Assembly (NCBI GenBank): GCA_049279335.1
Contig: JBAPNX010000024.1
Span: forward strand, 375,211 to 439,210
Reading direction: 5' to 3'
DNA from: Candidatus Dormiibacterota bacterium
GTDB lineage: Bacteria; Chloroflexota; Dormibacteria; Aeolococcales; Bog-877
Length of the DNA: 64,000 nucleotides
Below, piece by piece: positions 22,004-52,331 of the stretch. The position numbers and the translations under genes are program-made. The notes under the pieces are model-generated. The model was not told the origin of the DNA, searched no databases, and worked only from the letters and a program-made list of their open reading frames with translations. Positions within the stretch are counted from its first letter, which is position 1. The number at the start of each line of letters is the position of its first letter.

Positions 22004-22248
22004 CTTCGATCGAGGTTCGATCCGGAGGTGTGGCGGCTAGTCCACTGGCGGTGGACACCGGCACCGGCTGGGTGGGGGTGGAGGAGGTGGTGGAGCGCTG
22101 GCGAGTCGAGGTGGGCTGGTGGCGGGTCCCCTCTGAGCGTCCGGTCCAGCGCAGCTGCTGGCGAGTGCTGCTCGCGGATGGCCGCTGCCTCGACCTGCGG
22201 CTGGATCTGGCCTCCCGGCGTTGGGGGTTGGAGCGGACCTGGGGATGA
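22000..22248 (+). CDS. Small Trp/Arg-rich hypothetical protein overlapping the imuB stop (possible detached ImuB C-terminal module)
   Basis: 82-aa ORF with TTG start overlapping the imuB TGA (TTGA): ...VVERWRVEVGWWRVPSERPVQRSCWRVLLADGRCLDLRLDLASRRW. No recognisable domain. Confidence 0.35.
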   Translation: MTSIEVRSGGVAASPLAVDTGTGWVGVEEVVERWRVEVGWWRVPSERPVQRSCWRVLLADGRCLDLRLDLASRRWGLERTWG

Positions 22249-22346
22249 GACCGAACGTCTTCTGCTAGCGTCACTACATGCCCGACCGCCCGGCCACATC
22301 GACCTCGCCTCCGCCTTCGAACGCCCCACCCGGCGGGCGGCCGCCC

Positions 22347-25015: not shown

Positions 25016-25022
25016 CAGTTCG
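25009..25022. promoter_or_regulatory. LexA (SOS) box upstream of dnaE2, with adjacent -10-like TATCAT
   Basis: gCGAACatcaGTTCGt is a perfect CGAAC-N4-GTTCG palindrome. TATCAT sits at 25023-25028, only 6 nt before the dnaE2 ATG (25035), suggesting a leaderless or very short-leader transcript. Confidence 0.6.
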
Positions 25023-25034
25023 TATCATGTGGCG

Positions 25035-28000
25035 ATGCCTCAGCTCAGCTTCTCGGAACTCTGGGCCCGTTCCTACTTCTCCTTTTTGGAAGGTGCCAGC
25101 GCCCCCGAGGCGATGGTCGCCCGGGCCGCCGAACTGGGGATGGCCGCCTTGGGCCTGGTGGATCGAGGCGGCCTATATGGAGCGGTACGGTTGGTCCAGG
25201 CTGCCGAGAGGGTCGGGCTGGCTGCCATGGTGGGGGCGGAACTGGACCTGGAGGGTGGGGGCCGACTGGTCCTGCTGGCCACCGACCGCCCCTCGTACCA
25301 ACAGCTCTGCCGAGCGGTGAGCCGGGCCCAGTTGGCGGGGGACAAGGGGGCCCACCGCCTCCACCTGACGGGACTGCAAGCAGTCCTCGCCGACGCTGCG
25401 GGCAGGGTAGGCGGTGAGCGCGATGCCGTCCCCTTGCCAGCGCTGACCCGGCGACGGAGCCGGCAGGACGGAGCGGAGGTCGCCGCTGACAGCCAGGTGG
25501 CGCCGGAGCAGGTCAGCCGCTGCACGGTGATGGCGGGAGGACCCCACAGCCCCATCAGCCTGGCCCTTCTCCGTGGTGACAGGGAGGCGGCCGATCGGGC
25601 TGCCCTGGCCCTCCGCGAAGCCTTCCCCAGAGGCCTGGTCTACCTCTCCATGCACCACCATCTCCATCCCGGAGACAGCTGGCTGGCGGCGGAGACCGCC
25701 GCCTGTGCGCTGCGGACTGGGGTGGGTCTCTTGGTTTCAGGCGCTCCCCGTTATGCCACAGCTCCCGAGGCGTCCCTCTTGGACGTGCTCACCGCCATTC
25801 GCCACAACTCCACCCTGGATGAGGCAGCCGAGCGAGGGCTGCTACTGCCCAACCACCAGTACCAGATGCGAGATGGGGACCAGCTGAGGGAGCTGCTCCC
25901 ATATCCGGCTGCCTTCCAGGCCACCGCCGATCTGGCTGCCCGAGCCGAGCTCAAGCTCGACTTCCGCCACAGCCGCTTCCCCGGCTTCAGGGCGCCTTCG
26001 GGACTGAGCCCCGATCAGTACTTGGAGCAGCTCTGCCGCCGAGGGCTGCCGAGCAGATACCCGACTCCCAGCGCTGAAGTTGAGGCCCGGCTGGTCCATG
26101 AGCTCCGGGTCATCGCCAAGTGCAAACTGGCCGAGTTCTTTCTCATCGTCTGGGAGCTGATGGACTTCGCCTCCCGCGAGGGGATACCGGCCCAGGGCCG
26201 GGGTTCCGCCGCCGACAGCCTGGTGGCCTACCTGCTGGGCATAACCCGGGTCGACCCCATTGCTCACCGCCTGCTCTTTGAGCGCTTTCTCCACGAGGAG
26301 ATGCAGGGCACTCCCGACATCGACATCGACATCTCGACTGCCCACCGGGAGCAGTTGCTCCGCCACGTCTACGACACCTACGGCCAGGATCGCACCGGGA
26401 TGGTGTGCACCGTCATCACCTTCCAGCTCCGGATGGCGGTCCGCCAGGTAGGGGCCGCCTTCGGGCTGCCCCAGCCGGTGGTGGACAAGCTCAGCCGCTC
26501 GGTGGACCGCTGGTACGGGAAGGGCGAGCAGGCCATGGTCGCCCAGCTGCTGGAGTCGGCTGGCGAACTCCCGGAACAGGTCCTGGTCTCACCGTCCTGG
26601 CGCCAGTTCGCCAGCATGGTGGAGGCGGTGGTGGGAGTGCCGCGCCATCTCTCCATCCATGTCGGCGGCATGCTGGTCACCGGAGAGCCGCTCTGGGATA
26701 TCGCCCCCTTGGAGCGAGCCACCATGCCCGGCCGGGTGGTGGTCCAGTTCGACAAGGACGACGTCGAGGACCTGGGCCTGATCAAGATCGACCTGCTTGG
26801 GCTGCGCACCCTCTCGGTGGTGGCCGAGACCCTTGACGAGCTGGAGCAGGCCACCGGTGAGCGCCCCGACCTGGAGGCACTGGACCTAGCCGACCCAGAG
26901 GTCTATGCCATGTGCGCCAGGGCTGACACCATCGGGGTCTTTCAGATCGAGTCGCGGGCCCAGCAGCAGACCCTGCCCCGCACCAACCCCAAGGAGTTCA
27001 ACGACCTGGTGGTCGAGGTGGCGATCATCCGGCCCGGCCCCATCCAGGGCAAGGCGGTCCACCCCTACATGCGCCGCCGCCAGGGTCGTGAAGAGGTGAG
27101 CTACCTCCATCCGCTGCTGGAACCGATCCTCCACGACACCCTGGGGGTGATCCTCTTCCAGGAGCAGATCCTGGAGATCGCCATGCAGCTGGCGGGATTC
27201 AGCGCCGGGGAGGCCGATCGCTTCCGCCGGGCCATGAACCGCCATCGCTCCCGGGTGGAGATGGGCTCCCTGGAGCAGGGATTTCTGGACGGCTGCTCTC
27301 GCCACCAGGTGTCGAGGGAGGTGGCGGCCGAGCTGTTCGAAGCAGTGAGGGGCTTCGCTGAGTTCGGTTTCTGCCGCAGCCATGCCGCCGCCTTCGCCCG
27401 CACCGCCTACGAGACCGCCTGGCTGCGGCTCTACCATCCCGCCGCCTATCTGGTGGGGCTGCTCAACCACCAGCCCATGGGTTTCTATCACCCGTCGGTG
27501 CTGGTCGAGGACGCCAAGCGGCGCGGAGTCAAGGTGCTCTCCGTGGACGTCAACCTCAGCCGGAGCCGCTGTCATCTGGAGGAGGGATCCAGGACTCCCC
27601 GCCAATTCGGCGTCCGACTCGGCTTCAACTACGTCAGAGAGCTGGGCGGGAACCTGGGTGAAGAGCTGGATCGAGAACGTGAGCTGGGCCCGTACCGATC
27701 ACCGGAGGACTTCTGGCGCCGTACCGAACTCTCCCGACCGGCGCTGGACTCCCTGGTGATGGTGGGTGCCCTGGACAGCTTTGGTGAGTCCCGCCGCAAA
27801 CTGCTCTGGCGGCTCAAGACGGTAGAGGAGGAGCTGGCGGGGAGCCGCGGACCGCGATCCACCCTCATCCCCGGACAGGCTGAACCGGTGAGTGCCAGGC
27901 AGCAGCAGTTGCTGGCGCTGCCGGCGGAACCACCGCGGCTGGCGGATCTGACCGCGAGGGAGCGGGCCGCGGCCGACTACCGAATCATGGGTCTGACCAC

Positions 28001-28403
28001 CGGAGAGCACCTGGTCTCCTTCCTGCGGCCGCAGCTGGCCGAACTGGGGGCGATTCCTCTGGCTGAGGTGAGAGAGGCGGGCAATGGCAGAAGGGTGCGG
28101 GCCGCCGGGCTGGTGATAACCCGCCAAGCGCCCTACTCCGCCCACGGCATGCGCTTCTTCACCGTGGTTGACGAGACGGCGCACCTGGACCTGGTTCTCC
28201 GCCCCCAGGTCTACCGGGCCCACCGGTCCTGGGCCAACCATGAGCCGGTGATCTGCGCCGAGGGGGTGTTGCAGGTGGCGGACGGGGCCCTCAGCCTCCT
28301 GGTCGAGAAATTGCTGCCACTACCCCGGCCGGTGCCCCAGGCGGCTGACCCTAGCCCGACCGACTCGTTGTTCCCCGCCCCGTCGGCTCACGACTACCAC
28401 TGA
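25035..28403 (+). CDS. dnaE2: Error-prone DNA polymerase III alpha subunit DnaE2 (ImuC)
   Basis: N-terminal PHP domain (FSFLEGASAPEAMVARAAELGMAALGLVDRGGLYG), polIIIalpha core and C-terminal OB fold. 1123 aa from ATG 25035, typical of DnaE2 rather than the replicative DnaE1 (about 1180 aa). Confidence 0.85.
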   Translation: MPQLSFSELWARSYFSFLEGASAPEAMVARAAELGMAALGLVDRGGLYGAVRLVQAAERVGLAAMVGAELDLEGGGRLVLLATDRPSYQQLCRAVSRAQLAGDKGAHRLHLTGLQAVLADAAGRVGGERDAVPLPALTRRRSRQDGAEVAADSQVAPEQVSRCTVMAGGPHSPISLALLRGDREAADRAALALREAFPRGLVYLSMHHHLHPGDSWLAAETAACALRTGVGLLVSGAPRYATAPEASLLDVLTAIRHNSTLDEAAERGLLLPNHQYQMRDGDQLRELLPYPAAFQATADLAARAELKLDFRHSRFPGFRAPSGLSPDQYLEQLCRRGLPSRYPTPSAEVEARLVHELRVIAKCKLAEFFLIVWELMDFASREGIPAQGRGSAADSLVAYLLGITRVDPIAHRLLFERFLHEEMQGTPDIDIDISTAHREQLLRHVYDTYGQDRTGMVCTVITFQLRMAVRQVGAAFGLPQPVVDKLSRSVDRWYGKGEQAMVAQLLESAGELPEQVLVSPSWRQFASMVEAVVGVPRHLSIHVGGMLVTGEPLWDIAPLERATMPGRVVVQFDKDDVEDLGLIKIDLLGLRTLSVVAETLDELEQATGERPDLEALDLADPEVYAMCARADTIGVFQIESRAQQQTLPRTNPKEFNDLVVEVAIIRPGPIQGKAVHPYMRRRQGREEVSYLHPLLEPILHDTLGVILFQEQILEIAMQLAGFSAGEADRFRRAMNRHRSRVEMGSLEQGFLDGCSRHQVSREVAAELFEAVRGFAEFGFCRSHAAAFARTAYETAWLRLYHPAAYLVGLLNHQPMGFYHPSVLVEDAKRRGVKVLSVDVNLSRSRCHLEEGSRTPRQFGVRLGFNYVRELGGNLGEELDRERELGPYRSPEDFWRRTELSRPALDSLVMVGALDSFGESRRKLLWRLKTVEEELAGSRGPRSTLIPGQAEPVSARQQQLLALPAEPPRLADLTARERAAADYRIMGLTTGEHLVSFLRPQLAELGAIPLAEVREAGNGRRVRAAGLVITRQAPYSAHGMRFFTVVDETAHLDLVLRPQVYRAHRSWANHEPVICAEGVLQVADGALSLLVEKLLPLPRPVPQAADPSPTDSLFPAPSAHDYH

Positions 28404-32943: not shown

Positions 32944-34089
32944 CTAACTCACTGCGATTCCTTCGATCCCCGCTCCGAGTCCGGTTACAGATCCGATTTC
33001 CCTGAGCGACCCGTTCCATTGGATCTGGAACTCATCGATAGCTCCGGCTGCCCCTGCCTCGGCGTAAAGCGCGCCGTCGGAGCTAACCGCCATGTCGATG
33101 GGACCGGCATCGGTGTTAGCGACCACACCACCGTCGGAGCCCAGGAGGGCCAAGCTGCCGTTGAAGCCAACGCTGTAACCGCTGAGGGTGTTGCTGCCGG
33201 CGTTGGCGCCGTAGTAAAAGCCATCAGCCCGGACGATCCAGCAAAGAGCTGCCTGCCCGTCCCCAAGCGTTGCGACCGCGAGTAGTCCACCACTCGGGGT
33301 CACGTCGTAGGTGGTGATGCTGCTGGAACCGGCCTCGGTCACGACCAGTCGCCCGAAGCTGTCGAAGGTGAACCCAAACGGCACCGGTTGCGCGCTGGCG
33401 TTAGTGGTCGCAGCCCCGAGCTGGCCATTCCATGTCACCGCGAAGACATCGATGTCGCTGCCGCTAGCCTTGGTGGTGACCACCAGCTGCCTGCCACTTG
33501 GGGTGAATCCCACCTGCCCGGGCGACTCCAGGTAATTGGGGTGATCGGCGTTGGCCAATCCCAAGGACCGTGCCGAGCCGGGGATGGGACTCAGCCAATC
33601 GCCGGCGAAACGATATCCCTGGAGCACGCCGGCGCCGCCGCCGTTAAGGACATAGACCAGCTGCCCGCTGACGGCGACACTGTCAGGGAACGCACCTTCG
33701 GAGGGGAGAACCTGATTCAATGCGATCCCGCCGTTTCCAACTCGGAAAACAGAGATCGAGTCACTGCCGGCGTTGACGCTGATCAAGACCTGATGGGCAG
33801 GATCGAAAACCAGTGAGCCCTGAGACGCAAGGGAATCCACCACCGCACCGCTGGCGGTTGCACCCAACCCACCCGTCGCGTAGCGGCCGACGAGGGTCAG
33901 GCCCTCGGGGCTGTGCCGGTAGACGATGACCTGGTTACCACTGGCCGCGTTGGTCTGGGCGAAGACCAACTGTGGACCGCCCCACCAGCTGGGTTGCCCT
34001 GGGCTTGCCGCACTGACCGGTAAGTTCAGCAGGGCTGCACAGCCGGCCAGAAAGGCGACTGCCGTACCTAGTCGCAGGCGATTCCTCAT
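32944..34089 (-). CDS. Secreted lipoprotein, 7-bladed beta-propeller lactonase family (6-phosphogluconolactonase-like)
   Basis: Signal peptide plus lipobox FLAGC. Repeated SG/YV..N..S.S..VF propeller blades. Strong RBS GGAAGGAGG 7 nt upstream of ATG 34089. Confidence 0.65.
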   Translation of the reverse strand: MRNRLRLGTAVAFLAGCAALLNLPVSAASPGQPSWWGGPQLVFAQTNAASGNQVIVYRHSPEGLTLVGRYATGGLGATASGAVVDSLASQGSLVFDPAHQVLISVNAGSDSISVFRVGNGGIALNQVLPSEGAFPDSVAVSGQLVYVLNGGGAGVLQGYRFAGDWLSPIPGSARSLGLANADHPNYLESPGQVGFTPSGRQLVVTTKASGSDIDVFAVTWNGQLGAATTNASAQPVPFGFTFDSFGRLVVTEAGSSSITTYDVTPSGGLLAVATLGDGQAALCWIVRADGFYYGANAGSNTLSGYSVGFNGSLALLGSDGGVVANTDAGPIDMAVSSDGALYAEAGAAGAIDEFQIQWNGSLREIGSVTGLGAGIEGIAVS

Positions 34090-34568
34090 CTGGGTTCCTC
34101 CTTCCGGCACAGTTAGGTCCCCCCGCGGGGGCCGGAGCTTCGGGGGGGTGGAGACTCTCCGGGACCAACCCAGGGTTGGCTGATGTGGAGTCCCGACACC
34201 GACGCTAGCCCGGGGGCCTTACGTAAATCGGACCCTGGGCTTACCTTTCGGTGACACCGGTTGAGGACCTGCTCGGATCTGGGGGATCGAGCCGAGCACT
34301 TCTAGCTTGTCGGCTCCCGAATCACAGTTGGACTTAGGGGCGCAATCATTTCGTAAGCATTCGACAAGGGCTGCGTGAGTTCCCGACCCGAGACTGGCAG
34401 ACATGGCACCGCGGGTGCTTCTCAGGCGGAGTGGAGAGCAGACATGCCACCGGTGGGCGAGGGTAGCGGGGGGGGCAACCGATCGCCGCTGGGGCTCTCA
34501 AGCGCTTCATGCACGGCAGCGGCAGCTATGGGGAGGCACCTTCGGGTGGTGGGGGATACGATCTGAAG

Positions 34569-35252
34569 ATGCCGACTGTGCTGGTCGTCGACGACGACAC
34601 GGTGGTCCGGGACGTGGTGAGCCGCTATCTGGAGCGGGACGGGGTCAAGGTAGTGCAGGCGGGCACCGGTGACCAGGCGAGGCAGTTGCTAGAGCGGGCC
34701 CGTCCCGACTTGGTCGTCCTTGACGTCATGATCCCCGGCGTCAACGGTTTGGATCTGTGCCGGTGGATCCGCGACCGTGGCCAGGCAGCCGTGATCCTGC
34801 TTACCGCCCGCACTGAGGAGGCCGATCGCATCGTCGGCTTGGAACTCGGAGCTGATGACTACGTCACCAAGCCCTTTTCTCCTCGTGAGCTGGCTGCCCG
34901 TGTCAAGGCCGTGCTGCGTCGATCGTCAGCCCCACCGGCGCGAAGCCTGCCCATCGAGGCCGGCGCCTTGATGATTGACCCAGAGGCACGCGAGGTGACC
35001 CTCGGAGGCGCCCAGGTCGAGCTCACTGCCCTGGAGTTCGATCTGCTCCGTTTCCTGGCCGGCAACCCTCGAGTGGTCTTCTCGAGGGACCAGCTGCTGA
35101 CGAGAGTCTGGGGTCACCAGCGCAGTGTGGAGACCGCCGCCAGCACGGTCACGGTTCACGTGCGCCGGCTGCGCGAGAAGATCGAGGCCGACCCCTCGAG
35201 TCCGGCTCTCATCCAGACGGTCTGGGGAGTGGGCTACAGGTTCGTGCCGTGA
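34569..35252 (+). CDS. OmpR-family response regulator
   Basis: Receiver domain (VLVVDDD...DLVVLDVMIPG...TARTEE) plus winged-helix output (TVHVRRLREKIE...IQTVWGVGYRF). ATG at 34569. Confidence 0.85.
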   Translation: MPTVLVVDDDTVVRDVVSRYLERDGVKVVQAGTGDQARQLLERARPDLVVLDVMIPGVNGLDLCRWIRDRGQAAVILLTARTEEADRIVGLELGADDYVTKPFSPRELAARVKAVLRRSSAPPARSLPIEAGALMIDPEAREVTLGGAQVELTALEFDLLRFLAGNPRVVFSRDQLLTRVWGHQRSVETAASTVTVHVRRLREKIEADPSSPALIQTVWGVGYRFVP

Positions 35253-36448
35253 TCGGGCTCTTCTTGGCGGTTGGTGCCGCCACCCTGGTTGCGGGGGTGC
35301 TGGGGGCGCTGGCACTGCAGCTACTGCCGACGGTGAGGCTCCAGCTGGTGGGGCTGGCCATGCTGGCGGTGGGCCTGCCTCTGGCGGCGGTATCCGTGTC
35401 TGGTCTAGCCATGTTCCACGGCGGGCCAGCTCGAGCGATCTTGGTGGTGTCATCCGCCTCGGCGGTGGCTGCCCTGGCCGGGGCCACGCTGGTCGAGCGA
35501 CGGATCATGGGCCGGTTGCAGCGACTTCGGGCAGCCTCTTCTGACCTGGCGGCGGGAGTGCTGGCGGCGCGGGCTCCTCGAGGGGGACCCGCGGAGCTGG
35601 CCGAACTCGCCACTTCCTTCAACGTCATGGCCCAGAACCTGGAGGATCTTTTCGACGCCCGGCGTGAACTGGTGACTTGGGCCAGTCACGATCTCCGAGC
35701 TCCTGTCACCTCGATCCGAGCCATGCTGGAGGCGCTGGAGGACGGACTGGCGACCACGGCTGAATACCTGTCGCCCCTCCAAGACCAGGTGCGGCTGCTG
35801 GAGAGAAGGATCAGCGAACTCTTCGAGATGGCCCGGATCGATCGCGGGTCTACTCCGGCAGAAACCAAGGAGGTCGATTTGGCCCCCCTGATTGAGACCT
35901 GCGCCGGTTGGTTCGACGCGGAGGCGCGGAGCGCCGGGATCAGCCTCCAGACCGACAACTTCGACGCCGCTCTGATGGCCTTCTGTGTCCCGGAGAAGGT
36001 TGAGAGGGTCGTCTCCAACCTCATCACCAATGCGGTGCAGCACACTCCCGCTGGGGGAGAGATCCGAGTGTCGGCCACCGAGCAGCAGGGAGCCATCCTG
36101 GTGGCCGTCAGCGACACGGGTTGCGGGATCCCCGCCCAGGATCAGGCCCGGGCATTTGAGCCCTTCTGGCGGGCGGACCCAGCGCGTTCCACCGCCAACG
36201 GTGGGTCGGGGCTGGGCTTGGCCATCGCCAAGGGGCTGGTTGAAGCTCAGGGTGGCCGGATATGGGTCGATCCCGTGCCCAGCAGGGGTACAAGAATCTG
36301 CTTCCTTCTGCCGGCGGCCCCGAGCGCGAGGCAAGAAAGCATGTCCGCGTCGGCAGACCGAGCCCGAGGGACTGGTAGGGCTTCCGGCGCGGGAGTCGCA
36401 GCCATGACCAGAGGGGAGTTGCCCGTCACACGTAGCCAGTTGGGCTGA
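35249..36448 (+). CDS. Sensor histidine kinase (HAMP-HisKA-HATPase)
   Basis: 2 TM helices plus HAMP, H-box ASHDLRAPVTSI, and ATPase N/G boxes (NLITNAVQHT, DTGCGIP, GGSGLGLAI). GTGA overlap with the response regulator. Confidence 0.85.
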   Translation: MIGLFLAVGAATLVAGVLGALALQLLPTVRLQLVGLAMLAVGLPLAAVSVSGLAMFHGGPARAILVVSSASAVAALAGATLVERRIMGRLQRLRAASSDLAAGVLAARAPRGGPAELAELATSFNVMAQNLEDLFDARRELVTWASHDLRAPVTSIRAMLEALEDGLATTAEYLSPLQDQVRLLERRISELFEMARIDRGSTPAETKEVDLAPLIETCAGWFDAEARSAGISLQTDNFDAALMAFCVPEKVERVVSNLITNAVQHTPAGGEIRVSATEQQGAILVAVSDTGCGIPAQDQARAFEPFWRADPARSTANGGSGLGLAIAKGLVEAQGGRIWVDPVPSRGTRICFLLPAAPSARQESMSASADRARGTGRASGAGVAAMTRGELPVTRSQLG

Positions 36449-37432: not shown

Positions 37433-38187
37433 GCCAGGACGGGTTCTCCCGGGTCGCCCTGCCGACCGTCGAGAGCCCGGAACCGGATGCGGTGAAGGGG
37501 ATGTTCGCCAGCCTGGCGCAGCGCTACGACCTGCTCAACTCTGTGCTCAGCCAGGGCCAGGACCGGCGCTGGCGCCGCCGGGCCGCCCAGCTCACCAGGG
37601 CCCAACCGGGGGACGCGGTGCTGGACGTCTGCACCGGTACGGGAGCCCTGGCAGCCCTCCTGCGCCGTCGGGTCGGCGGGAGCGGCCAGGTGGTGGGGAT
37701 CGACTTGACCGAGGCCATGTTGGAGGTGGCCAGGGCCAGGGTTCCCGAGGTCAGGTTCGTGGCGGCGGACGCCTGCGCCCTGCCCTTCCCCGATCAGTCC
37801 TTCGACGCCACCACCATGGCGTTCGGGCTGCGCAACATAGGCGACCGGCAGAAGGCGCTGGACGAGCTGGCCCGGGTCCTGCGCCCGGGAGGCCGGGCTG
37901 TGATTCTCGAGTTCAGCCAGGTCCACCCGCTGCTGCGGCCCGCCTACCACTGGTACAGCCGGCGGCTGATCCCGGTGGTCGCGAGGGCGGTCATGGGCCG
38001 GGACAGCGCCTATCGCTATCTCACCGAGTCGATCGCCGCCTTTGCGTCGCCGGAGCTAGTCGCCTCCTGGCTCAAGCAGGCTGGCTTCAGCCCGGTTCAC
38101 CACTACCGGATGACTGCTGGGGTGGTGGCCATCCACGTGGGCCGGCGCCAGGGGACGCTTCTCAGACGGGAGGCTGCAGGAGGCTGA
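37429..38187 (+). CDS. menG: Demethylmenaquinone / ubiquinone C-methyltransferase (UbiE/MenG family)
   Basis: MFASLAQRYDLLNSVLSQGQDRRWRR, SAM-binding LDVCTGTGAL, and LRPGGRAVILEFS. Proposed GTG start overlapping the MTAP stop (GTGA). ATG alternative near 37501. Confidence 0.8.
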   Translation: MSQDGFSRVALPTVESPEPDAVKGMFASLAQRYDLLNSVLSQGQDRRWRRRAAQLTRAQPGDAVLDVCTGTGALAALLRRRVGGSGQVVGIDLTEAMLEVARARVPEVRFVAADACALPFPDQSFDATTMAFGLRNIGDRQKALDELARVLRPGGRAVILEFSQVHPLLRPAYHWYSRRLIPVVARAVMGRDSAYRYLTESIAAFASPELVASWLKQAGFSPVHHYRMTAGVVAIHVGRRQGTLLRREAAGG

Positions 38188-38626
38188 GGGTCTCCGCCAC
38201 CAGCGCGGGACGCTCGGAGCCCTCCAGTTCGTAACTGATCTCGTAGGTGACCAGGAAGCCCGAAGGGGGGCGCTCACGCACCTCAAGCACCTTGGCTCGC
38301 AGCCTGACCCGGCTTCCGGCTGTCACCGGCGCGAGGAAGCGCAGTCGGTTGAGTCCGTAATTGATGCTGGTGGCGTGACGGCGAACGTGGTTGATCTGGT
38401 CCAGCAGCATCGGAGTCAGGGAGAGCGTGAGGTACCCGTGGGCGATGGTGTTGTGGAACTCGCTTTGGGCCGCCCTCTCGGGGTCGACATGGATCCACTG
38501 GTGGTCGCCGGTGACCTCGGCGAAGGCGTCGACCTTGGCCTGGTCGAGCTCCACCCATTCGCTCGGCCCCAGGGTCGAGCCGACCGCTTTTCGTAGATCA
38601 TCGATCGTCTCGGGCGGCACTGCCAT
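38162..38626 (-). CDS. MaoC-like (R)-specific enoyl-CoA hydratase / hotdog-fold dehydratase
   Basis: C-terminal 155 aa from MAVPPETIDD... with the hotdog core (FAEVTGDHQWIHVDPERAA...HGYLTLSL). The upstream part of the listed ORF is low-complexity. Confidence 0.7.
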   Translation of the reverse strand: MAVPPETIDDLRKAVGSTLGPSEWVELDQAKVDAFAEVTGDHQWIHVDPERAAQSEFHNTIAHGYLTLSLTPMLLDQINHVRRHATSINYGLNRLRFLAPVTAGSRVRLRAKVLEVRERPPSGFLVTYEISYELEGSERPALVAETLSLLQPPV

Positions 38627-38683
38627 CGCTTCTTGGGTAGGGTACAGTGAGCGCCAGGTCGGTAGTCCGGGGGGACCGGGCCG

Positions 38684-40381
38684 ATGGAATCCGGGAGCAG
38701 AGAAGTCCGCGTGATTCGCACCTTGGTGGTAGCGGGGGGCCGGCAGGCGGAGGACCTGGCTCCGTGGCTGGAATACATGGGCCGGACTGGGACCATCACC
38801 GCCCAGGTGACAGCCGACGTCTCCGCGCTTAGCCAACCCGAGGGCTATGACGTGATCGTGGCCCATCCTCCTCAGGGCGAGCTCTTCCCGGCGGCCGAGA
38901 CCGGCCTCTGCAATTTCGTGCGTCGGGGCGGGGGCTTCCTGGGTCTGCATTGCACCAACGCCACCTGGGCCTCGGCCCGCCAGTACCTAGACCTGGTCGG
39001 GGGCGGCCCGGAGGGTCGGCTGCCCAGCAGCGAGATCGTGAGCCAGGTCAGCGATGGCGGCCACGACATCACCCGCCGTCTGGCCGGCTCACTGACGCTG
39101 CACGACTCCTGCTACACCCAGCCTCAGGCGCCGCCCGATTGCCGGGTCTTGCTCGACACCACCTGGCAGGCCAAACGACTTCCAGTCGCCTACGTCAGGG
39201 AGCCGGGCGCGGGCCGTGTCTTCTACTGGGGGATGGGGGAGGCGGCGTCGACCTTCCGCGAGCCCGAAGTTCAGGAGCTTCTCTACCGGGGGCTGCGCTA
39301 CCTGGCCGGCGAGGTGGAGCGAGACTATGTGGGCCTGGGCATGCTCGGCTTCGGCGCCATCGGCGGCGACCACGTCGCCTCCATTGCGGCTGTGGCGGGG
39401 CTGAGCCTGCGGGCGGTGGCCGACCCCAACCCCACCCGGGTCGAGGCGGCCAGTCAGCTGGTCCCAGACGTGGCCGTCGCCTCCAGCCTGGCTGACCTGG
39501 TGAAGACGCCCGGTGTCGAGGTCGTGATCATCTCCACTCCCCCCAACACCCACGCCGCTCTGGCCGAGCAGGCGCTTCAAGCCGGCAAGCACGTGGTGCT
39601 GGAGAAGCCCTTCTGCCTCACCCTCGCCGACGCGGACCGGCTGGTGGACTTGGCCAAGGAGACCGACAGGACCCTCACCGTCTACCAGAACCGCCGCTGG
39701 GACCCTGACTTCCTGGCGCTGAGGGCGGCAATTGAGCGGGGTGACCTGGGCTCGATCTTTCACCTGGAAGCCTTCGTCGGCGGCTACGACCATCCCTGCC
39801 ACTACTGGCACTCGCATTCGCCGGTCAGCGGCGGGGTGATCTTCGACTGGGGGGCTCACTACCTGGACTGGATCCTGCAGCTGATCCCGGGACCGGTGGT
39901 TCAGATCGCGGCCCGCAACCAGAAGCTGGTCTGGCAGGACGTCACCAACGACGACCACTTCGAGGTCCGGATGACCTTTGCCAATGGGGCCGAGGCTACC
40001 TTTATCCACTCCGACATCGCCGCCGCTCGCAAGCCCAAGTGGTATGTGCTGGGCACGCGGGGGGCTGCGGTAGGCCATTGGCGCGAGGGCAGGCTGACCA
40101 GCCGCGGGCCGAGTGGGCAGCTGGTGGAGGAGCTGCTTTCGGTAACCGATCTACCCTGCGAGCTCCACATCCTCACCCCCAGCGGCTCCGGGGAGAGCCA
40201 CGACCAGCTGCTCTCGCTGCCGCCCGCGCCGCCCCAGGCCTTCTACCGGAATTTGGCCGGCCATCTCCTGGCCGGGGAGCCGCTGGCGGTGACCCCGGAG
40301 TCGGCGCGTCGCAACGTCGCACTGATGGAGGCCGCGCTGCGTGCGGCCGAGCTGGGGCAGCCGCTCAACCAGCGAGTGTGA
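38684..40381 (+). CDS. Fusion protein: ThuA-like (class I glutamine amidotransferase-like) N-domain plus Gfo/Idh/MocA oxidoreductase (ThuB-like) C-domain
   Basis: Residues about 1-215 resemble ThuA (VVAGGRQ...FVRRGGGFLGLHC...). Residues about 225-565 are a Gfo/Idh/MocA Rossmann plus C-terminal domain (LGMLGFGAIGGDHVAS..., EKPFCLT..., dimerisation region). Confidence 0.7.
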   Translation: MESGSREVRVIRTLVVAGGRQAEDLAPWLEYMGRTGTITAQVTADVSALSQPEGYDVIVAHPPQGELFPAAETGLCNFVRRGGGFLGLHCTNATWASARQYLDLVGGGPEGRLPSSEIVSQVSDGGHDITRRLAGSLTLHDSCYTQPQAPPDCRVLLDTTWQAKRLPVAYVREPGAGRVFYWGMGEAASTFREPEVQELLYRGLRYLAGEVERDYVGLGMLGFGAIGGDHVASIAAVAGLSLRAVADPNPTRVEAASQLVPDVAVASSLADLVKTPGVEVVIISTPPNTHAALAEQALQAGKHVVLEKPFCLTLADADRLVDLAKETDRTLTVYQNRRWDPDFLALRAAIERGDLGSIFHLEAFVGGYDHPCHYWHSHSPVSGGVIFDWGAHYLDWILQLIPGPVVQIAARNQKLVWQDVTNDDHFEVRMTFANGAEATFIHSDIAAARKPKWYVLGTRGAAVGHWREGRLTSRGPSGQLVEELLSVTDLPCELHILTPSGSGESHDQLLSLPPAPPQAFYRNLAGHLLAGEPLAVTPESARRNVALMEAALRAAELGQPLNQRV

Positions 40382-41397
40382 TCGCAGCGCCGCTCCGGTG
40401 GGGGGTGCTGGGCGCGGCTGACATCGCCAACAAGGCGGTCATCCCCGCGATTCTCGCGGCCGGTGGGCAGATGGTGGCGCTGGCCAGCAGAGACCTCGAG
40501 CGGGGCGGGGAGATAGCCGCCAAGTTCGCCATCCCCCAGCTTTGCCCAAGCTATGAGGCGCTGCTGGAGGCCGACCTGGACGCGGTCTACATCCCGCTTC
40601 CCAACTCGCTCCACCGGCCCTGGACCCTGCGGGCGGTGGCTGCCGGCAAGCACGTCCTCTGCGAGAAGCCGATGGCCCTCACCGCGGCGGAGGCTAGGGA
40701 GATGGGGGAGGCTGCTGCCGACCACGGCGTGGTGCTGGCGGAGGCGGTCATGTATCGCTATCACCCACGCTGGCACGTGATACGGGAACTCGTCGGCCAG
40801 GGAAGCCTAGGCGGCCTGCGCCACATCCAGGGAGCCTTCACCTTTCCTTTGCGGCAAGAGTCGGATATCCGCTGGGACCCCGCCCTGGGAGGCGGCGCGC
40901 TCTACGACGTCGGGTCTTATCTGGTCAATGCCAGCCGTTGGCTGGTAGGCGAGCCGACCAGGGTGCTGACGCGAGCCCAGCTAAGGCATGGTGTTGTCAG
41001 CGATGGCTCCATGCTGCTGGAGTTCAAGACCCCTCAAGGCGCTGTCTCGGCTGAGCTCGCCTACAGCTTCGAGTCCGCCGAGCACCAGCGTCTGGAGTTG
41101 ATCGGAACCGAGGCCTCCCTGACCATCCCCAAACCCTTCACCGCCTGGCATGAGGAGGCGATCCCGCTCTGGCTTAGCCCGGCGCCTGGGGGCACATCTC
41201 GACGCGTCCCCACCCCCGCGGCGGATCCCTACCGGGAGATGGTTTCGGCATTCACGGTCCGGGTTGGTGGGGGAGCGCTGCTGCCAACCGAGGCGGATGA
41301 CGCGGAGCTGGGCCTGCGGGTTCTCGACGCTGGTCACCGTAGCCACGTCAGTGGCAAGTGGGAGACCCCCTGGGCAGCGGCTAGCCCTATCCCCTGA
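40378..41397 (+). CDS. Gfo/Idh/MocA family oxidoreductase
   Basis: LRWGVLGAADIANKAVIPAI (Rossmann), EKPMALT, and the conserved C-terminal alpha/beta domain. GTG start overlapping the upstream stop (GTGA). Confidence 0.8.
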   Translation: MIAAPLRWGVLGAADIANKAVIPAILAAGGQMVALASRDLERGGEIAAKFAIPQLCPSYEALLEADLDAVYIPLPNSLHRPWTLRAVAAGKHVLCEKPMALTAAEAREMGEAAADHGVVLAEAVMYRYHPRWHVIRELVGQGSLGGLRHIQGAFTFPLRQESDIRWDPALGGGALYDVGSYLVNASRWLVGEPTRVLTRAQLRHGVVSDGSMLLEFKTPQGAVSAELAYSFESAEHQRLELIGTEASLTIPKPFTAWHEEAIPLWLSPAPGGTSRRVPTPAADPYREMVSAFTVRVGGGALLPTEADDAELGLRVLDAGHRSHVSGKWETPWAAASPIP

Positions 41398-42781
41398 TCT
41401 CGATCGCGCAGCTGGGAGCTGAGAGCTTCAGGTCCAGGAGACCGGTGGTGGATCTGTAGGGTGCGGCCATCTGGGCACATTGACTAAGGATGGTCGGCAT
41501 GCCCACCGAGGAAGGCCAGGAGACCAGCATCCGGCTGCCCACCGGCGCGGCCTGGACATCGGCCGAAAGGGTCGAGGAAGCCACCTGATAGTCGAGGTGA
41601 CTCAGTTTCCCGGGTGCCGCGCGCACGAAGGGCTGGGCGAGGACGTCGAGCCAAGCATGGTCGACTGGCCCGCTGCCGCGCTCGACCCCCCAGTTGTCCG
41701 GATCATTCCACTCCCACCAGGCCCAGCCGGTGAGGAATCGATTGGAGAGGGAGATCTCGGCGCGGGCCCAGGAGGCGGCGATGGGCCGGGTGTGGTCGAT
41801 GCCGAGCTCGCCTGACCAGTACGCGGCGGGGAGCTGACCCGCCTCGGCCAGCCCTTGCTCGAGCTCGGACTCAAGCGGTTGCAGGTTGCCGTTGAACGGG
41901 GGCCCGAGGATGCTGCCGCTGTAGAGATGAGTGGAGTAGACGAGGTTCGGTGCCGCGAGCGGGCGGATGGCGGTGGGCAGGTCGGCGAAGAGGTCTCCCT
42001 CGACGATGAAGAGGTGGTTGGGATCAACTTTGGCCAGGGCGCTGATGCCGGCGGCGTAGAAGGGCCAGAGGATGTGGGTCTCAAAGATGGCCGGGGGGAC
42101 CGGGAAGGGATGGGGCTCGTTGTAGAGGTCGTAGCCAGCGACCGCGGAGTCGCCTCGAAAATCCGCCGCGACCTTGGCCCAAGCCTGCCAGTAGAGGCGC
42201 TGCCAGTTGGGATAGAGCCAGAAGTAGGCGAGCGCGGCGTTCACGGCGGGGGAGAGATGGCGTTGCCAGGCCGCGGTCAAGAAGGGTAGGTGCAGGTCGG
42301 GCACCCCTGGGATCGATAGCCAGGCGGGGGCGCCGCTGCCGCCGAAGCCGACTCCGAAGTCCTCGGTGTGCATGTCCAGTACCACGTAAAGGTGGTGGCT
42401 GGCGCAGCGGGCGACCACGGCTCTGATCCGGCGCAGGTAGCTCTGGCTGAACTGTCCCCGATGGGGCTCGAGCAGAGACCACGAGATCGGCAGCCGAACC
42501 ACGTCGAAGCCCTCCGACTCCATCAGAGATGCGTCTGCCGGAGTCATGGGAGGAGCGGCTGCCTGTCCTCCGATCTGGAGAAGGGTGTCGTCGTTGAAGC
42601 CGCGGAGGATGACCGTCCGGCCCTGGCTGTCGACGATCCGGCCCTGGCTGACGGAAAGCCAGGGCAGTGGGCCGGCGGCGGGCCGGGCCGTCTCGAATGT
42701 CACCGACAGGGCGGGCACCGGCAGGTAGACAACCGCGGCCAGCGCCAGCACCAGCCCAATCGCGCTGGGGAGTGACGACAT
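41387..42781 (-). CDS. Glycoside hydrolase family 5 (cellulase superfamily) secreted/anchored protein
   Basis: N-terminal hydrophobic anchor or signal. GH5 motifs including the NEP acid/base catalytic motif (LYNEPH) and a later catalytic Glu region (GELG). About 465 aa. Confidence 0.6.
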   Translation of the reverse strand: MSSLPSAIGLVLALAAVVYLPVPALSVTFETARPAAGPLPWLSVSQGRIVDSQGRTVILRGFNDDTLLQIGGQAAAPPMTPADASLMESEGFDVVRLPISWSLLEPHRGQFSQSYLRRIRAVVARCASHHLYVVLDMHTEDFGVGFGGSGAPAWLSIPGVPDLHLPFLTAAWQRHLSPAVNAALAYFWLYPNWQRLYWQAWAKVAADFRGDSAVAGYDLYNEPHPFPVPPAIFETHILWPFYAAGISALAKVDPNHLFIVEGDLFADLPTAIRPLAAPNLVYSTHLYSGSILGPPFNGNLQPLESELEQGLAEAGQLPAAYWSGELGIDHTRPIAASWARAEISLSNRFLTGWAWWEWNDPDNWGVERGSGPVDHAWLDVLAQPFVRAAPGKLSHLDYQVASSTLSADVQAAPVGSRMLVSWPSSVGMPTILSQCAQMAAPYRSTTGLLDLKLSAPSCAIEIRG

Positions 42782-42896
42782 CCCGCCCGCGCGCTGGTTG
42801 CGGGCGGACCTCAACGCTAGGCGCAGCACCTGGGGATTGTGTCGCACCGGGGGCGGCCTGCCTGGAGACCGCGGTCAGATGCGAAGAGGGGAAAGG

Positions 42897-43415
42897 CTAC
42901 TCGTTGCCGACCTTGGAGTTGGGAGTGGAACTGCCGAAGTTGATGAAGCCTTCGATTACTGCGCCGGTTTGGGCGTCCACCAGGACCGTGTCCAAGCGGA
43001 TGGCTCCTGGGGCCGGAGGATTGATCTCCTCCGCGGCGGCGGGGTTCAGGAAAACCACCCAGCAGAGCCTGCCTGGAGGTGAGATAGCCGAGCCCGGCGA
43101 CCCAACCGCGACTGCCAGCAGCACCTGGTCGACAAGGGCCCCGGACCGGCCCGCCGTGGCCGCGGACTCGGCCCGAGCCGCGCTGATGTCGGCCGGTCGG
43201 GTAGGCGTCTGCAGGGTGACCCCGCTCTGCTCCAGCAGGGTCTGGGTGCTGGGCAGGATGCCTAGGCCGTTGGCACTCTCCGGCGCGTGGGTGGCGGTCA
43301 AACTCAAGGCCGCCATCACACCCACTACCAGGGCGACGGCTATCGCTCGCAAGCGCCACCAGGCGCGTGGGCGGGGACCCGGATTGGTCCAGTGCACGCT
43401 GGAATCATCGGACAC
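42897..43415 (-). CDS. Hypothetical membrane-anchored protein
   Basis: Single N-terminal TM helix (LRAIAVALVVGVMAALSL) followed by an extracytoplasmic domain. No recognisable motif. Confidence 0.35.
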   Translation of the reverse strand: MSDDSSVHWTNPGPRPRAWWRLRAIAVALVVGVMAALSLTATHAPESANGLGILPSTQTLLEQSGVTLQTPTRPADISAARAESAATAGRSGALVDQVLLAVAVGSPGSAISPPGRLCWVVFLNPAAAEEINPPAPGAIRLDTVLVDAQTGAVIEGFINFGSSTPNSKVGNE

Positions 43416-43539
43416 GAGAGATCTATGGTGGAATCGGGAGATGGCGCCGGGTTTGGCCGGCGCCCGGCTGCGGTAGGGTAGCTCTAGCGGTGCCTCGACG
43501 TGGCATCAGGCTGCAGTGCAACGGAGGTTCGGAGACGTA

Positions 43540-45465
43540 ATGGCCAAGACCGTCGGAATCGACCTGGGAACGACCAACTCCGTGGTCGCCGTCATGGAGG
43601 GCGGCGAGCCCGTTGTCATACCCAACGCTGAGGGCGGTCGCACGACCCCGTCGGTGGTGGCCTTTACCAAAGGTGGGGAGCGGCTGGTCGGGCAGTTGGC
43701 CCGGCGGCAGGCTGCTGTCAACCCCGAGAACACCGTCTACTCGATCAAGCGATTCATGGGTCGCCTCTATAACGAGGTGGCGAGCGAGCGCAAAATCGTC
43801 CCCTACAAGGTGGTGGCCGGCAAGGATGGTCGCGCTGAGGTGGACATCGCCGCCACCAAGTACACCCCCGAGCAGATCTCGGCCATGATCCTGCAGAAGC
43901 TCAAGGTCGACGCTGAGGCCTACCTGGGGGAGAAGGTCACCGACGCGGTGATCACTGTGCCTGCCTATTTCAACGACGCCCAGCGGCAGGCCACCAAGAA
44001 CGCCGGCCAGATCGCCGGGCTAAACGTGCTCCGGATCATCAACGAGCCCACCGCTGCATCTCTGGCGTACGGGCTGGACCGCAAGGAGTCCGAGAAGATC
44101 CTTGTCTTCGACCTCGGCGGAGGCACCTTCGACGTCTCCATCCTCGAGGTCGGCGAGGGGGTATTCGAGGTCAAGTCGACCAACGGCGACACCCACCTGG
44201 GTGGAGACGACTACGACCGTCGCATCGTTGACTGGCTGGCCGAGGAGTTCAAGAAGGAGCAGGGCATCGACCTGAAGACGGATCGTCAGGCCCTGCAGCG
44301 CCTGACCGAGGCCGCCGAGAAGGCCAAGATCGAGCTCTCTCAGCTTCAGGAAACCCAGATCAACCTGCCCTTCGTCACCGCCGATCAGAACGGTCCCAAG
44401 CACCTTGACACTCGGCTGTCGCGGGCCAAATTCGAGCAGTTGACGGCTGATCTCACCGACCGCTGCAAGGCGCCCTTCGAGAACGCTCTCAAGGACGCTG
44501 GCATGAAGACCGGTGACCTGGACGAGGTCATCCTGGTTGGAGGCTCCACCCGGATGCCGGTGATCCAGGAGTTGGTTCAGAAGCTCAGCGGCAAGGAGCC
44601 CCACCGGGGGGTCAACCCCGACGAGGTCGTCGCCGTAGGCGCCGCCATCCAGGCCGGCGTGCTCAAGGGTGAAGTCAAGGACGTGCTCCTGCTGGACGTG
44701 ACCCCGCTGTCCTTGGGCATCATGACCGAGGGGGAGGTCAACACTCGGCTGATCGAGCGCAACACCACCATTCCCAGCAGCAAGACCCAGGTCTTCTCCA
44801 CCGCCGCCGACAACCAGTCCTCGGTGGAGATCGTGGTCCTCCAGGGCGAGCGACCCCTGGCCAAGGACAACCGGACGCTGGGGCGCTTCATGCTGGACGG
44901 GATTCCCCCGGCCCCGCGCGGCGTGCCCCAGGTCGAGGTGACCTTCGACATTGACGCCAACGGCATCCTCAACGTGACCGCCAAGGACCTGGGCACCGGA
45001 CGCGAGCAGAAGGTCACCATCACCGGGTCCACCACGCTCCAGAAGGAGGAGGTGGAGAGGATGGTCAAGGAGGCGGAAGCCCACGCCGACGAGGACCGCC
45101 AGCGAGCCGAGGACATCTCCCGGCGCAACCAGGCCGACACCCTGGTCTACAGCGCCGAGAAGACGCTGCGTGAGCACGGCGACAAGATCTCGGACGAGCT
45201 CCGAGAGGAGATCACCCAGAAGACCGACGCCCTGAAGGAGGCGGTGGCCGCCCAGAACTCCCAGGACATAGAGAGCCGGCAGAAGGAGCTCTCCGATGCG
45301 CTCCAGAAGGTGGGCGAGGCCATCTACCAGCAGGCCAACCCATCGACACCTGGTTCCGACGGTGAGCACGGTGGGGGAGAGGACATTCCCCCAGCCGCAG
45401 GAGCGCCGGATGCCGCCGCGGGCAGCGACGGCGATGTCGTCGACGCCGAGTTCAAGGAAGTGTGA
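43540..45465 (+). CDS. dnaK: Molecular chaperone DnaK (Hsp70)
   Basis: [18 protein letters not shown]..., [22 protein letters not shown]. Full-length Hsp70. RBS GGAGG upstream of ATG. Confidence 0.95.
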
Positions 45466-51593: not shown

Positions 51594-52331
51594 TTGTTGG
51601 GGCCAGTGGCTGGCGTCGCTGACGTAGGCTCCGGCCCATCCAGGGGGACGGACGTCCGATTTCCTGCCACGCTTGGCCGAGGAGTGGTCGTCGGCGCGAT
51701 CTGCTGGGCCCTATGTCTGCTCTTCTTCATCGATCAGGGGATCGCTGAAGCAGCCTCCAAGGCCCCCTACAGCCCCATCACCAATCTCATCAGTGACCTC
51801 GGCGTCACCAGGTGTGGTCCTCTGGCCCTGGGCAGTTATCACAACAGCATCTGTTCTCCGCTCCATGCGCTCATCGACTGGACGTTCGTTGTTGTCGGGG
51901 TGCTGCAGGCGCTCGGAGCCATCCTTCTCTTCCCTGCGTGGCCGCGGCAGAGCCGTGAATGGATAAACGGCATGATCGGCCTCGCACTTATCCCGATGGC
52001 CGGCGCCTGCCTGACGATCGTAGGTTTGGCGCCGGAGAACGTCTCACCGGACGCGCACGCCACCGCCGCCAAGATCGGGATCTACCTCTTGAATGCGGCG
52101 GTCCTTCAGATTGGCATCAGCCTAGTGCGCGTCAGCCGAGTTGCTGGGGGCCTGAGCCTTGTTGCCGCGATCACCGGCTGGGTCGGCACCGGGCTCCTGT
52201 TCGGCGCTGCTACGGCTGTCCCCCTTGGTCTCTCAGAGAGGTTGGCGGACTTTCCCGGGTCAGGGGTACTGGTAGCGCTCGGGGTGTTCGTACTCGCAAG
52301 GGCGCTTCACGCCCGGCTCCGAACGTCGTGA
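51594..52331 (+). CDS. DUF998-like integral membrane protein
   Basis: 6 hydrophobic helices with conserved CGPLALG and NSICSPLHAL segments as in DUF998 proteins. Start uncertain. Confidence 0.5.
   Translation: MLGPVAGVADVGSGPSRGTDVRFPATLGRGVVVGAICWALCLLFFIDQGIAEAASKAPYSPITNLISDLGVTRCGPLALGSYHNSICSPLHALIDWTFVVVGVLQALGAILLFPAWPRQSREWINGMIGLALIPMAGACLTIVGLAPENVSPDAHATAAKIGIYLLNAAVLQIGISLVRVSRVAGGLSLVAAITGWVGTGLLFGAATAVPLGLSERLADFPGSGVLVALGVFVLARALHARLRTS

Follow-up and report, generated by a model that had tools for sequence, protein, structure and literature searches.

ThuA proteins are widespread partners of the Gfo/Idh/MocA sugar dehydrogenases, and we found no biochemical account of the contribution of ThuA in the literature. 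In Sinorhizobium meliloti, ThuA and ThuB convert trehalose, maltitol and sucrose isomers to their 3-keto derivatives (Ampomah et al. 2013, as cited in PMC8121099). A ThuA-domain protein is also mentioned in a PNAS 2024 paper on deoxynojirimycin degradation, where its role is only inferred. We located the S. meliloti genes on pSymB by tblastn and by reading the open reading frames (ORFs); they follow thuG and thuK in the operon as thuA (L007:2478-3290, 270 amino acids, aa) and thuB (L007:3287-4384, 365 aa), two separate genes that overlap by ATGA. Here, we examine a locus of Candidatus Dormiibacterota that holds the same Pfam families (PF06283 for ThuA; PF01408 with PF02894/PF22725 for ThuB) in the same order, but in one chain. 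It lies in a stretch of 64,000 nucleotides (nt) of contig JBAPNX010000024.1, the whole of which we call the window, and it consists of a gene that fuses a ThuA domain to a Gfo/Idh/MocA oxidoreductase, followed by a second Gfo/Idh/MocA gene, hereafter GFO2. The fusion gene belongs to a large clade and represents a derived form of the ThuA/Gfo pairing. What is new in this work is that this clade has lost His and Glu residues still present in stand-alone ThuA proteins, that of S. meliloti among them, and in more distant fusions.

The presence of both domains in a single chain was the core of the original prediction, and profile searches bear it out. PF06283 is matched over its full length (95.4 bits against a cutoff of 33.4, with residues 14-206 covering profile positions 3-208/209), and the second half matches PF01408 (96.9 bits), PF22725 (75.7 bits) and PF02894 (47.9 bits). 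Residues are numbered along the 565 aa of the longest ORF, even though we prefer a protein of 556 aa, as explained below. The first half has the ThuA-like, class-I-glutamine-amidotransferase-like fold; a sequence search of the PDB returned nothing for it, while the fold search did give matches. Non-catalytic GATase1-like domains (GH42 beta-galactosidase trimerisation domain, IFT52, OST48/WBP1, dimethylformamidase, Agd3 and PelA) are only 11-20% identical to it and, unlike them, it still scores as a true PF06283 member. Its strand-helix elbow, where true glutamine amidotransferases have their nucleophile Cys, is formed by H89 and C90. Position 90 is a Cys in 7 of 29 fusion proteins and in 10 of 76 stand-alone ThuA proteins, hence conserved in neither group, and glutamine amidotransferase activity was rejected for want of a conserved Cys at this elbow.

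These 29 fusion proteins and 76 stand-alone ThuA proteins, the latter including those of S. meliloti, Rhizobium tumorigenes and Halomontanus, were compared position by position. In the stand-alone proteins, a polar constellation made of H89, H112, H127, D141, E142, Y144 and H186 is conserved at 84-96% at each position; it is a feature derived from our alignment and not a published definition of the ThuA family. With four His, an Asp-Glu and a Tyr, and with one His at the glutamine-amidotransferase nucleophile position, it looks like a metal or catalytic site, and we found no published test of it in the literature. In the fusion clade, E142 and H186 are found in none of the 29 proteins (70 and 69 of 76 in stand-alone ThuA), the window protein having S and E instead, and H112 is found in a single one (64 of 76), the window protein having R. 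H89 is reduced to 10 of 29 (72 of 76) and D141 to 18 of 29 (64 of 76), while Y144 stands at 22 of 29 (73 of 76) and H127 at 25 of 29 (65 of 76); the window protein has these four. S. meliloti ThuA, by contrast with the S142 and E186 of the window protein, retains E142 and H186 together with H89, H127 and Y144. Such counts speak against the proposal that a single polypeptide does here the work of both ThuA and ThuB.

The rest of the ThuA half has also diverged. The only residues that are still kept in it across the 29 fusions are G82, E117, W161, G175, G177, R202 and G209, and members of the clade share on average 39% pairwise identity in this half, compared with 55% and 61% in the two subdomains of the oxidoreductase. 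The domain is genuinely shorter in Ktedonobacteraceae, where its first 25-30 residues are absent, as shown by a stop codon that closely precedes the start in L006. The picture is different in 21 more distant ThuA-Gfo fusions, whose oxidoreductase halves are 24-41% identical to ours: taken together with P0198, a fusion in the reverse order, 18 of 22 carry the full constellation and the remaining 4 depart from it only at 127, 141 or 112/144. In P0211, whose oxidoreductase half is 50% identical, the ThuA site is degenerate as in the window. Read most simply, these alignments point to descent of this clade from an older fusion whose ThuA site was intact; the site would have been lost and the domain kept. 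The ThuA half of the clade is thus probably a structural remnant, because the His/Glu residues are gone and because it evolves faster than the oxidoreductase half.

Two points weigh against this interpretation. The degenerate status of the ThuA half is read from conservation, and this half may contribute to substrate binding if E117, W161 and R202 face the active site. A rival reading would have the ThuA half functional in a new way, as a substrate-binding or regulatory lid with a new site built from E117, W161, R131-R132, R172 and R202. All of these are invariant in the clade or close to it, and several are better conserved in the clade than in stand-alone ThuA (E117 100% against 39%, W161 100% against 32%, R131 97% against 33%, R202 100% against 61%), which suggests a clade-specific constraint rather than decay and may leave room for a new role, for example at an interface or as a lid; the high confidence of the structural model likewise suggests an ordered interface. 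However, the shortened N-terminus of the ThuA half in many Ktedonobacteraceae and its faster overall evolution fit a relaxed constraint, and we regard a newly functional ThuA half as unlikely.

Three lineages of ThuA/Gfo pairs are separated by the identity matrix, namely the S. meliloti pair, a pair of the R. tumorigenes type and the window type. The original prediction had named the window protein a ThuA-ThuB fusion, a name that its sequence does not sustain: by BLASTP, the ThuA half aligns with S. meliloti ThuA over 33 residues (E 0.011), and by tblastn against plasmids its rhizobial matches lie at E about 0.006 to 3 only, while the oxidoreductase half and ThuB share 25% identity across 281 residues (52 bits). 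GFO2 resembles ThuB in the Rossmann domain only (34% over the first 155 residues). Because these alignments are short or weak while other subfamilies match much better, the window proteins are, by sequence comparison, related to ThuA and ThuB at the level of the family and are not their orthologues. The R. tumorigenes-type pair (L008) resembles the window in that a ThuA partner is linked to a Gfo/Idh/MocA enzyme, the two being fused in P0198. The order is the opposite one, with Gfo preceding ThuA, and a ROK regulator and an ATP-binding cassette (ABC) transporter lie alongside. P0198, with its N-terminal Gfo and C-terminal ThuA domains, shares 40% and 43% identity with the split pair; compared with the window, P0198 and the pair show 27-30% identity in the oxidoreductase and 32% in ThuA. 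To judge from domain order and these identities, the P0198-type fusion is an event independent of the window-type fusion. ThuA and Gfo genes are adjacent in S. meliloti, R. tumorigenes and the haloarchaeal Halomontanus, where divergent ThuA and Gfo genes stand with TIM barrels of the sugar-phosphate isomerase type (L009). The independent origin of fusions in opposite orders is good evidence for a physical collaboration between ThuA and Gfo/Idh/MocA proteins.

The intact-site fusions with the domain order and length of the window protein (for example P0124, P0127, P0139 and P0140; about 540-565 aa), themselves uncharacterised, are 24-41% identical to it in the oxidoreductase half and about 30% in the ThuA half. 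They probably share an ancestral fusion with the clade of the window, but keep the His/Glu constellation that this clade lost, and their gene contexts also differ; P0124 has sulfatase and BACON-domain genes around it, and the contigs of P0124 and P0139 are too short to inform on context. The existence of fusions in both orders, and of one large fused clade that has discarded the His-rich site, bears on what ThuA does. Intact and degenerate fusions are testable material in this respect, the gene of the window being the degenerate and less informative case; if the ThuA half is truly a pseudo-enzyme, its comparison with intact-site fusions would be a natural on/off pair for ThuA function. Other ThuA fusions were also seen (P0128, P0254, P0134, P0221), in which two ThuA domains are joined to a 3-keto-disaccharide hydrolase domain (PF06439), a GDSL lipase to ThuA, or ThuA to DUF7133. 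The P0128-type fusion ties ThuA to 3-keto-sugar chemistry independently of ThuB.

The oxidoreductase half has the full catalytic set of a Gfo/Idh/MocA enzyme, with a Rossmann domain and a C-terminal alpha/beta domain, the glycine motif G222-x-G-x-x-G227, Asp247 after strand 2, E307-K308-P309 with its Lys, D388-x3-H392 and a loop H370-P-C...W375-H-S. The catalytic K308, D388 and H392, the Rossmann glycines and Asp247 are invariant among the 29 homologues, and invariance is dense in EKP 307-309, QNRRWD 335-340, HPC..WHS 370-377, D388-x3-H392 and HSD..KPKWY 442-454. The best PDB match is 3e18 (phmmer E 2.6e-43), followed in order by 3e82, 3kux, DgpA2 (a C-glycoside 3-oxidase, 9m37), Bacillus subtilis YvaA and Escherichia coli YhhX; Foldseek gives template modelling (TM) scores of 0.84-0.89 on the target, with 0.89 for 9m37. 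The EKP and D-x3-H motifs are common to this half, to DgpA2 and to the 3e18/3e82/3kux/YvaA/YhhX/YdgJ group, but DgpA2 and the 3e18/YvaA/YhhX/YdgJ group are without a ThuA domain. The nearest solved relatives that work on ring hydroxyls, those of glycosides or inositols, are DgpA2 and the scyllo-inositol dehydrogenases 5ya8 and 6ktj, while YvaA, another close relative, was deposited as an uncharacterised oxidoreductase.

An Asp after the second Rossmann strand favours nicotinamide adenine dinucleotide (NAD) over its phosphate (NADP). Asp247 occupies this position, as does the corresponding residue of 3e18, and because it is invariant the oxidoreductase half is probably NAD-dependent. Some homologues are labelled 'scyllo-inositol 2-dehydrogenase (NADP+)' by JGI, which fits poorly, in terms of motif, with the invariant Asp247; neither this label nor that of a 'ThuA-ThuB fusion / trehalose utilisation' protein should be transferred to the gene of the window. 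No NCBIfam equivalog cutoff is reached by the fusion protein or by GFO2. The fusion scores 146 bits for PRK11579 (cutoff 330), 109.6 bits for the inositol dehydrogenase model TIGR04380 iolG (cutoff 355), which is thus not matched at the equivalog level, and weakly, at 82 bits, for the UDP-GlcNAc 3-dehydrogenase model.

The second gene, GFO2, is coupled to the first as had been predicted, its GTG start overlapping the TGA of the fusion (GTGA), and this 4-nt start/stop overlap is conserved. It had also been described as a second ThuB-like oxidoreductase, which is not where its relatives lie. Its best PDB match, 4had (7e-53), is itself of unknown function, and it is followed by the sugar 3-ketoreductase KijD10 (3rbv, 1e-40), then by 1,5-anhydro-D-fructose reductase (AFR) and dimeric dihydrodiol dehydrogenase, the matches of this KijD10/AFR/dihydrodiol dehydrogenase branch spanning E 1e-40 to 1e-29. 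Its best NCBIfam model is the D-xylose 1-dehydrogenase Gfo6, far under the cutoff (103 bits against 350), and it is 23% identical to the oxidoreductase half of the fusion. GFO2 has A36-S37-R38 after strand 2, H79, E96-K97-P98 and D177-x3-Y181, that is, the Ser-Arg, the conserved His, the EKP Lys and the Asp-x3-Tyr of this branch. In orthologues from two phyla, H79, K97, D177 and Y181 are found in 44 of 44, and S37 and R38 in 41 of 44. The numbering of His79, Lys97, Asp177 and Tyr181 nearly coincides with that of the catalytic residues of dihydrodiol dehydrogenase. By its matches and motifs, GFO2 is therefore an enzyme of the KijD10/AFR/dihydrodiol-dehydrogenase type with an NADP-type signature.

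On balance, we think it somewhat probable that the two genes make a cytoplasmic pair, an NAD-type dehydrogenase and an NADP-type ketoreductase with a sugar or a cyclitol as substrate, in which the ThuA half is structural. This reading is drawn because of the catalytic sets, the NAD- and NADP-type motifs and the lack of export signals, none of which was seen on the fusion protein or GFO2. The dehydrogenase of gene 1, of the 3e18/YvaA/YdgJ/DgpA-like branch, would turn a ring hydroxyl into a ketone on a sugar, glycoside or cyclitol, and its ThuA-like domain, inherited from an older and widespread ThuA-Gfo fusion, would be kept as a tightly packed structural module and not as an enzyme. GFO2 would then reduce a keto group on the substrate of gene 1 or on its product, so that the pair may work through a keto intermediate towards net epimerisation or keto-sugar processing. 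The logic of the pairing could be like that of IolG/IolW or BT2158/BT2159, the latter discussed in PMC8121099. The disaccharide or cyclitol 3-oxidation module of the original prediction survives in part: the general idea of sugar or cyclitol oxidation agrees with the DgpA2 and scyllo-inositol dehydrogenase relatives, while the equivalence with ThuAB does not stand. What counts against the pair is that the cofactor assignments of both enzymes follow rule-of-thumb motifs, and that about 32 Ktedonobacteraceae loci carry the fusion without GFO2, so that the pair is not obligatory. We would further conjecture, although we hold it rather unlikely, that an ancestral bifunctional ThuA-dehydrogenase became, in this clade, a dehydrogenase with a ThuA pseudo-enzyme domain, which would have gained E117, W161 and R202 as clade-specific invariant residues and would act as lid or scaffold. 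With a dedicated NADP-type ketoreductase it would achieve a cytoplasmic NAD/NADPH-coupled epimerisation of a sugar or cyclitol, possibly a storage or stress-protectant compound, which no described route makes or uses.

The distribution of the fusion was studied in GTDB, with one genome per species and two motifs from the oxidoreductase half, and context counts were taken from the best 80 loci. The scan gave at least 570 related loci. Most of those 80 carry Dormibacterota or Chloroflexota labels (Ktedonobacteria, Chloroflexia), and a few are probably mislabelled bins; in 78, the ThuA half immediately precedes the oxidoreductase half in the same reading frame, the exceptions being a contig edge and one sub-threshold match. 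An assembly or frameshift artefact was rejected on this ground, the loci being independent. With the whole protein as query, 115 of the 120 best protein clusters combine a ThuA and a Gfo/Idh/MocA domain in 530-590 aa. The ThuA half alone retrieves 1244 proteins at E ≤ 0.001 among 50%-identity representatives, a mixture of stand-alone ThuA of about 210 aa, fusions of about 550 aa and very large multidomain proteins. The rarity implied by the original prediction is thus not borne out: the ThuA-Gfo fusion is widespread, being common among bacteria of soils, catalogued in databases under names such as 'ThuA domain-containing protein' and 'predicted dehydrogenase/type 1 glutamine amidotransferase', and uncharacterised, and we found no published description of this architecture in the literature.

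Three kinds of neighbourhood were found around it. In Dormibacterota (about 30 loci, including the window), the order is a PNP-family gene, a UbiE methyltransferase, sometimes a MaoC gene, the fusion, GFO2, a GH5 glycoside hydrolase, a small ORF and DnaK. In about 32 Ktedonobacteraceae loci, GFO2 is absent and an 800-aa cysS-GT2 gene lies directly upstream of the fusion. In about 15 loci of Chloroflexota and some Dormibacterota bins, the fusion is followed by GFO2 at 40-46% identity in other surroundings. GFO2 stands directly 3' of the fusion in every Dormibacterota-type locus long enough to show it and in about a dozen loci in other surroundings, at 40-84% identity across Dormibacterota and Chloroflexota; no other partner recurs across different kinds of neighbourhood and in both phyla. 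The cysS-GT2 gene encodes a cysteine-tRNA ligase with a C-terminal GT2 domain (L006:4584-6986; also, for example, L044, L048, L051, L059 and L063), and in L006 it lies 14 nt upstream of the ThuA-Gfo fusion. Its protein scores above the cutoff of the cysS equivalog (433 against 340) but below that of MshC (216 against 485), while the GT4 genes found next to other fusions are generic and far under the MshA and BshA cutoffs. A mycothiol-like link, raised by the CysRS-like and GT4 neighbours in Chloroflexota, was rejected for these reasons. Metagenome-assembled genomes (MAGs) labelled Nanopelagicaceae, Micrarchaeia/Micrarchaeaceae archaeon, Acidiferrales or Verrucomicrobiia also appeared (L014, L015, L020, L024, L034, L037, L045); most of them show the Dormibacterota neighbourhood (fusion, GFO2, GH5, PNP/UbiE and mostly DnaK), L045 being a fusion and GFO2 locus of the third kind, and they are probably mislabelled or mis-binned.

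These neighbourhoods bear on two other explanations of the pair. The first is a biosynthetic tailoring pair, in which a (nucleotide-)sugar or glycoconjugate would be modified, for example by inversion of a hydroxyl through a keto intermediate, together with a glycosyltransferase. In 7 loci of the third kind (L045, L068, L070, L072, L081, L083, L089), a GT4 gene of the same strand does immediately precede the fusion, to which the cysS-GT2 gene of Ktedonobacteraceae can be added, and in the window a GT2-GtrA gene occurs 8.7 kb upstream; the relatives of GFO2 that rank second after 4had are dTDP-sugar 3-ketoreductase, and the weak UDP-GlcNAc 3-dehydrogenase match of the fusion points the same way. 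However, these glycosyltransferases are generic and of two different families, none adjoins the unit in the window or in the other Dormibacterota-type loci, no aminotransferase, dehydratase or nucleotidyltransferase accompanies it, and every model match is far under its cutoff. We therefore see a tailoring role as improbable.

The second would make the locus a single-chain equivalent of rhizobial ThuAB, turning trehalose, sucrose or another disaccharide into its 3-keto derivative for catabolism and fed by the neighbouring secreted GH5. Beyond the Pfam families and order shared with thuA/thuB, this could draw on the fusion of ThuA to a 3-keto-disaccharide hydrolase domain in P0128, on the DgpA-type glycoside 3-oxidases among the closest solved relatives, and on one Ktedonobacterales locus, L005/L041, of the third kind, where fusion and GFO2 are accompanied by a third Gfo gene, a sugar ABC transporter and a ROK regulator, with a GH15/trehalase-like gene on the other strand. 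The lack of orthology to ThuA or ThuB and the loss of the signature residues of S. meliloti ThuA oppose it, as does the content of the window. The associated sugar ABC transporter or isomerase that the original prediction proposed to look for is found nowhere among its 46 probable genes, nor is a ROK or other sugar regulator, a DUF1080 protein or a xylose-isomerase-like TIM barrel that could cleave 3-keto-glycosides. S. meliloti, in contrast, has a thuEFGK-type transporter in its thuEFGKAB operon, while the sole ABC protein of the window is of the fused membrane/ATPase exporter type (3602-5446). The locus is set instead among housekeeping genes (DnaK, ClpB, menaquinone genes), and its GH5 linkage is confined to one syntenic lineage. 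A ThuAB equivalent is accordingly a doubtful explanation.

The gene of this GH5 is convergent and downstream, as first described, and its product has a signal- or anchor-like N-terminus. It matches the Pfam Cellulase family PF00150 (75.9 bits against 23.5, residues 73-382) and only weakly an endoglycoceramidase model (82 bits against a cutoff of 700). Its 3' end overlaps that of GFO2 by 11 nt (41387-41397), which leaves no room for a terminator; there is no overlap in L001. The link that had been drawn to it is not supported, since GH5 is tied to the fusion only where the whole Dormibacterota neighbourhood is conserved and is already gone in L003 (61% identity), a locus of the first kind that has neither MaoC nor GH5 and keeps GFO2. 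GH5 is thus probably not part of the fusion/GFO2 unit. The MaoC gene is missing from several Dormibacterota loci that retain both fusion and GFO2, and a functional link of the unit to GH5, to the MaoC dehydratase or to the PNP/UbiE genes was found unsupported, as they co-occur only with the whole neighbourhood.

The length of 565 aa first given for the fusion corresponds to a start at ATG 38684. The true start is most likely GTG 38711, giving 556 aa, because this codon (codon 10) is GTG or TTG in all 15 related Dormibacterota loci compared, the upstream ATG is changed to ATT in four of them and in-frame stops lie upstream in three, the homologues are mostly annotated at 556 aa, and the first β-strand of the AlphaFold2 model begins at residue 11. 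ATG 38684 was rejected, since the frame upstream is not conserved while the GTG/TTG at codon 10 is. Ahead of codon 10, GGGAG..GAG is kept as nucleotides across the Dormibacterota loci even though the reading frame is broken there in several, and the segment GGGAGCAGAGAA would serve in ribosome binding. The AlphaFold2 model of the full-length fusion has a predicted local distance difference test (pLDDT) score of 89.6 and a predicted TM score (pTM) of 0.89, with low confidence in the invariant loop at about residues 365-395, and a linker of 8 residues joins the last ThuA helix (194-207) to the first Rossmann strand (216-221). The high pTM and the short linker suggest that the two halves are packed in a fixed arrangement in the model; no solved structure covering both was among the Foldseek matches.

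Table 1. Features of the fusion locus and its surroundings, in positions of the window.
Feature	Position	Strand	Basis or remark
Fusion gene, ThuA-domain / Gfo/Idh/MocA oxidoreductase	38711..40381	+	ORF, Pfam domains, homologue architecture, conserved start, AlphaFold2
Shine-Dalgarno-like GGGAGCAGAGAA, 5' of GTG 38711	38693..38704	+	Nucleotide conservation across Dormibacterota loci
ThuA-like (GATase1-like fold) half, residues 14-206	38723..39301	+	Apparently degenerate member
Short linker, residues 208-215	39305..39328	+	AlphaFold2 secondary structure, Pfam domain limits
Gfo/Idh/MocA oxidoreductase half, residues 216-565	39329..40378	+	Pfam, motifs, invariant columns, PDB relatives
GFO2, second Gfo/Idh/MocA gene, 339 aa	40378..41397	+	Sequence, Pfam, PDB relatives, orthologue conservation, linkage
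GH5 glycoside hydrolase, 486 aa, signal-peptide- or anchor-like N-terminus	41387..42847	-	PF00150, hydropathy
Divergent MaoC-like dehydratase	38162..38650	-	PF01575; not part of unit
Secreted lactonase-like beta-propeller gene	32944-34110	-	
Response regulator	34509-35252		
Histidine kinase	35249-36448		

A scan of 38000-43600 for promoters and terminators gave nothing beyond the shuffled expectation. At the start of the window (1-459, minus strand), the N-terminus of a cysteine-tRNA ligase runs off the edge; it lies about 38 kb from the fusion, and therefore the cysS adjacency of Ktedonobacteraceae does not hold here. Compared with the syntenic L001 and L002, the beta-propeller gene, response regulator and histidine kinase (32944-36448) replace the EamA transporter gene of the relatives. 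Between 48000 and 58000, the guanine-cytosine content is 0.63-0.65, against 0.66-0.71 elsewhere, and several ORFs are without a Pfam match, including 51594-52331 and 55760-56764; this segment may be foreign or fast-evolving DNA. Finally, a RecA-like gene (19947-20765), an overlapping gene of 413 aa (20762-22003) and a DNA polymerase III alpha-like gene of 1136 aa (24993-28403) look like an imuA-imuB-dnaE2 mutagenesis cassette (19947-28403), interrupted by FtsH (22278-24278) and a DUF429 gene.

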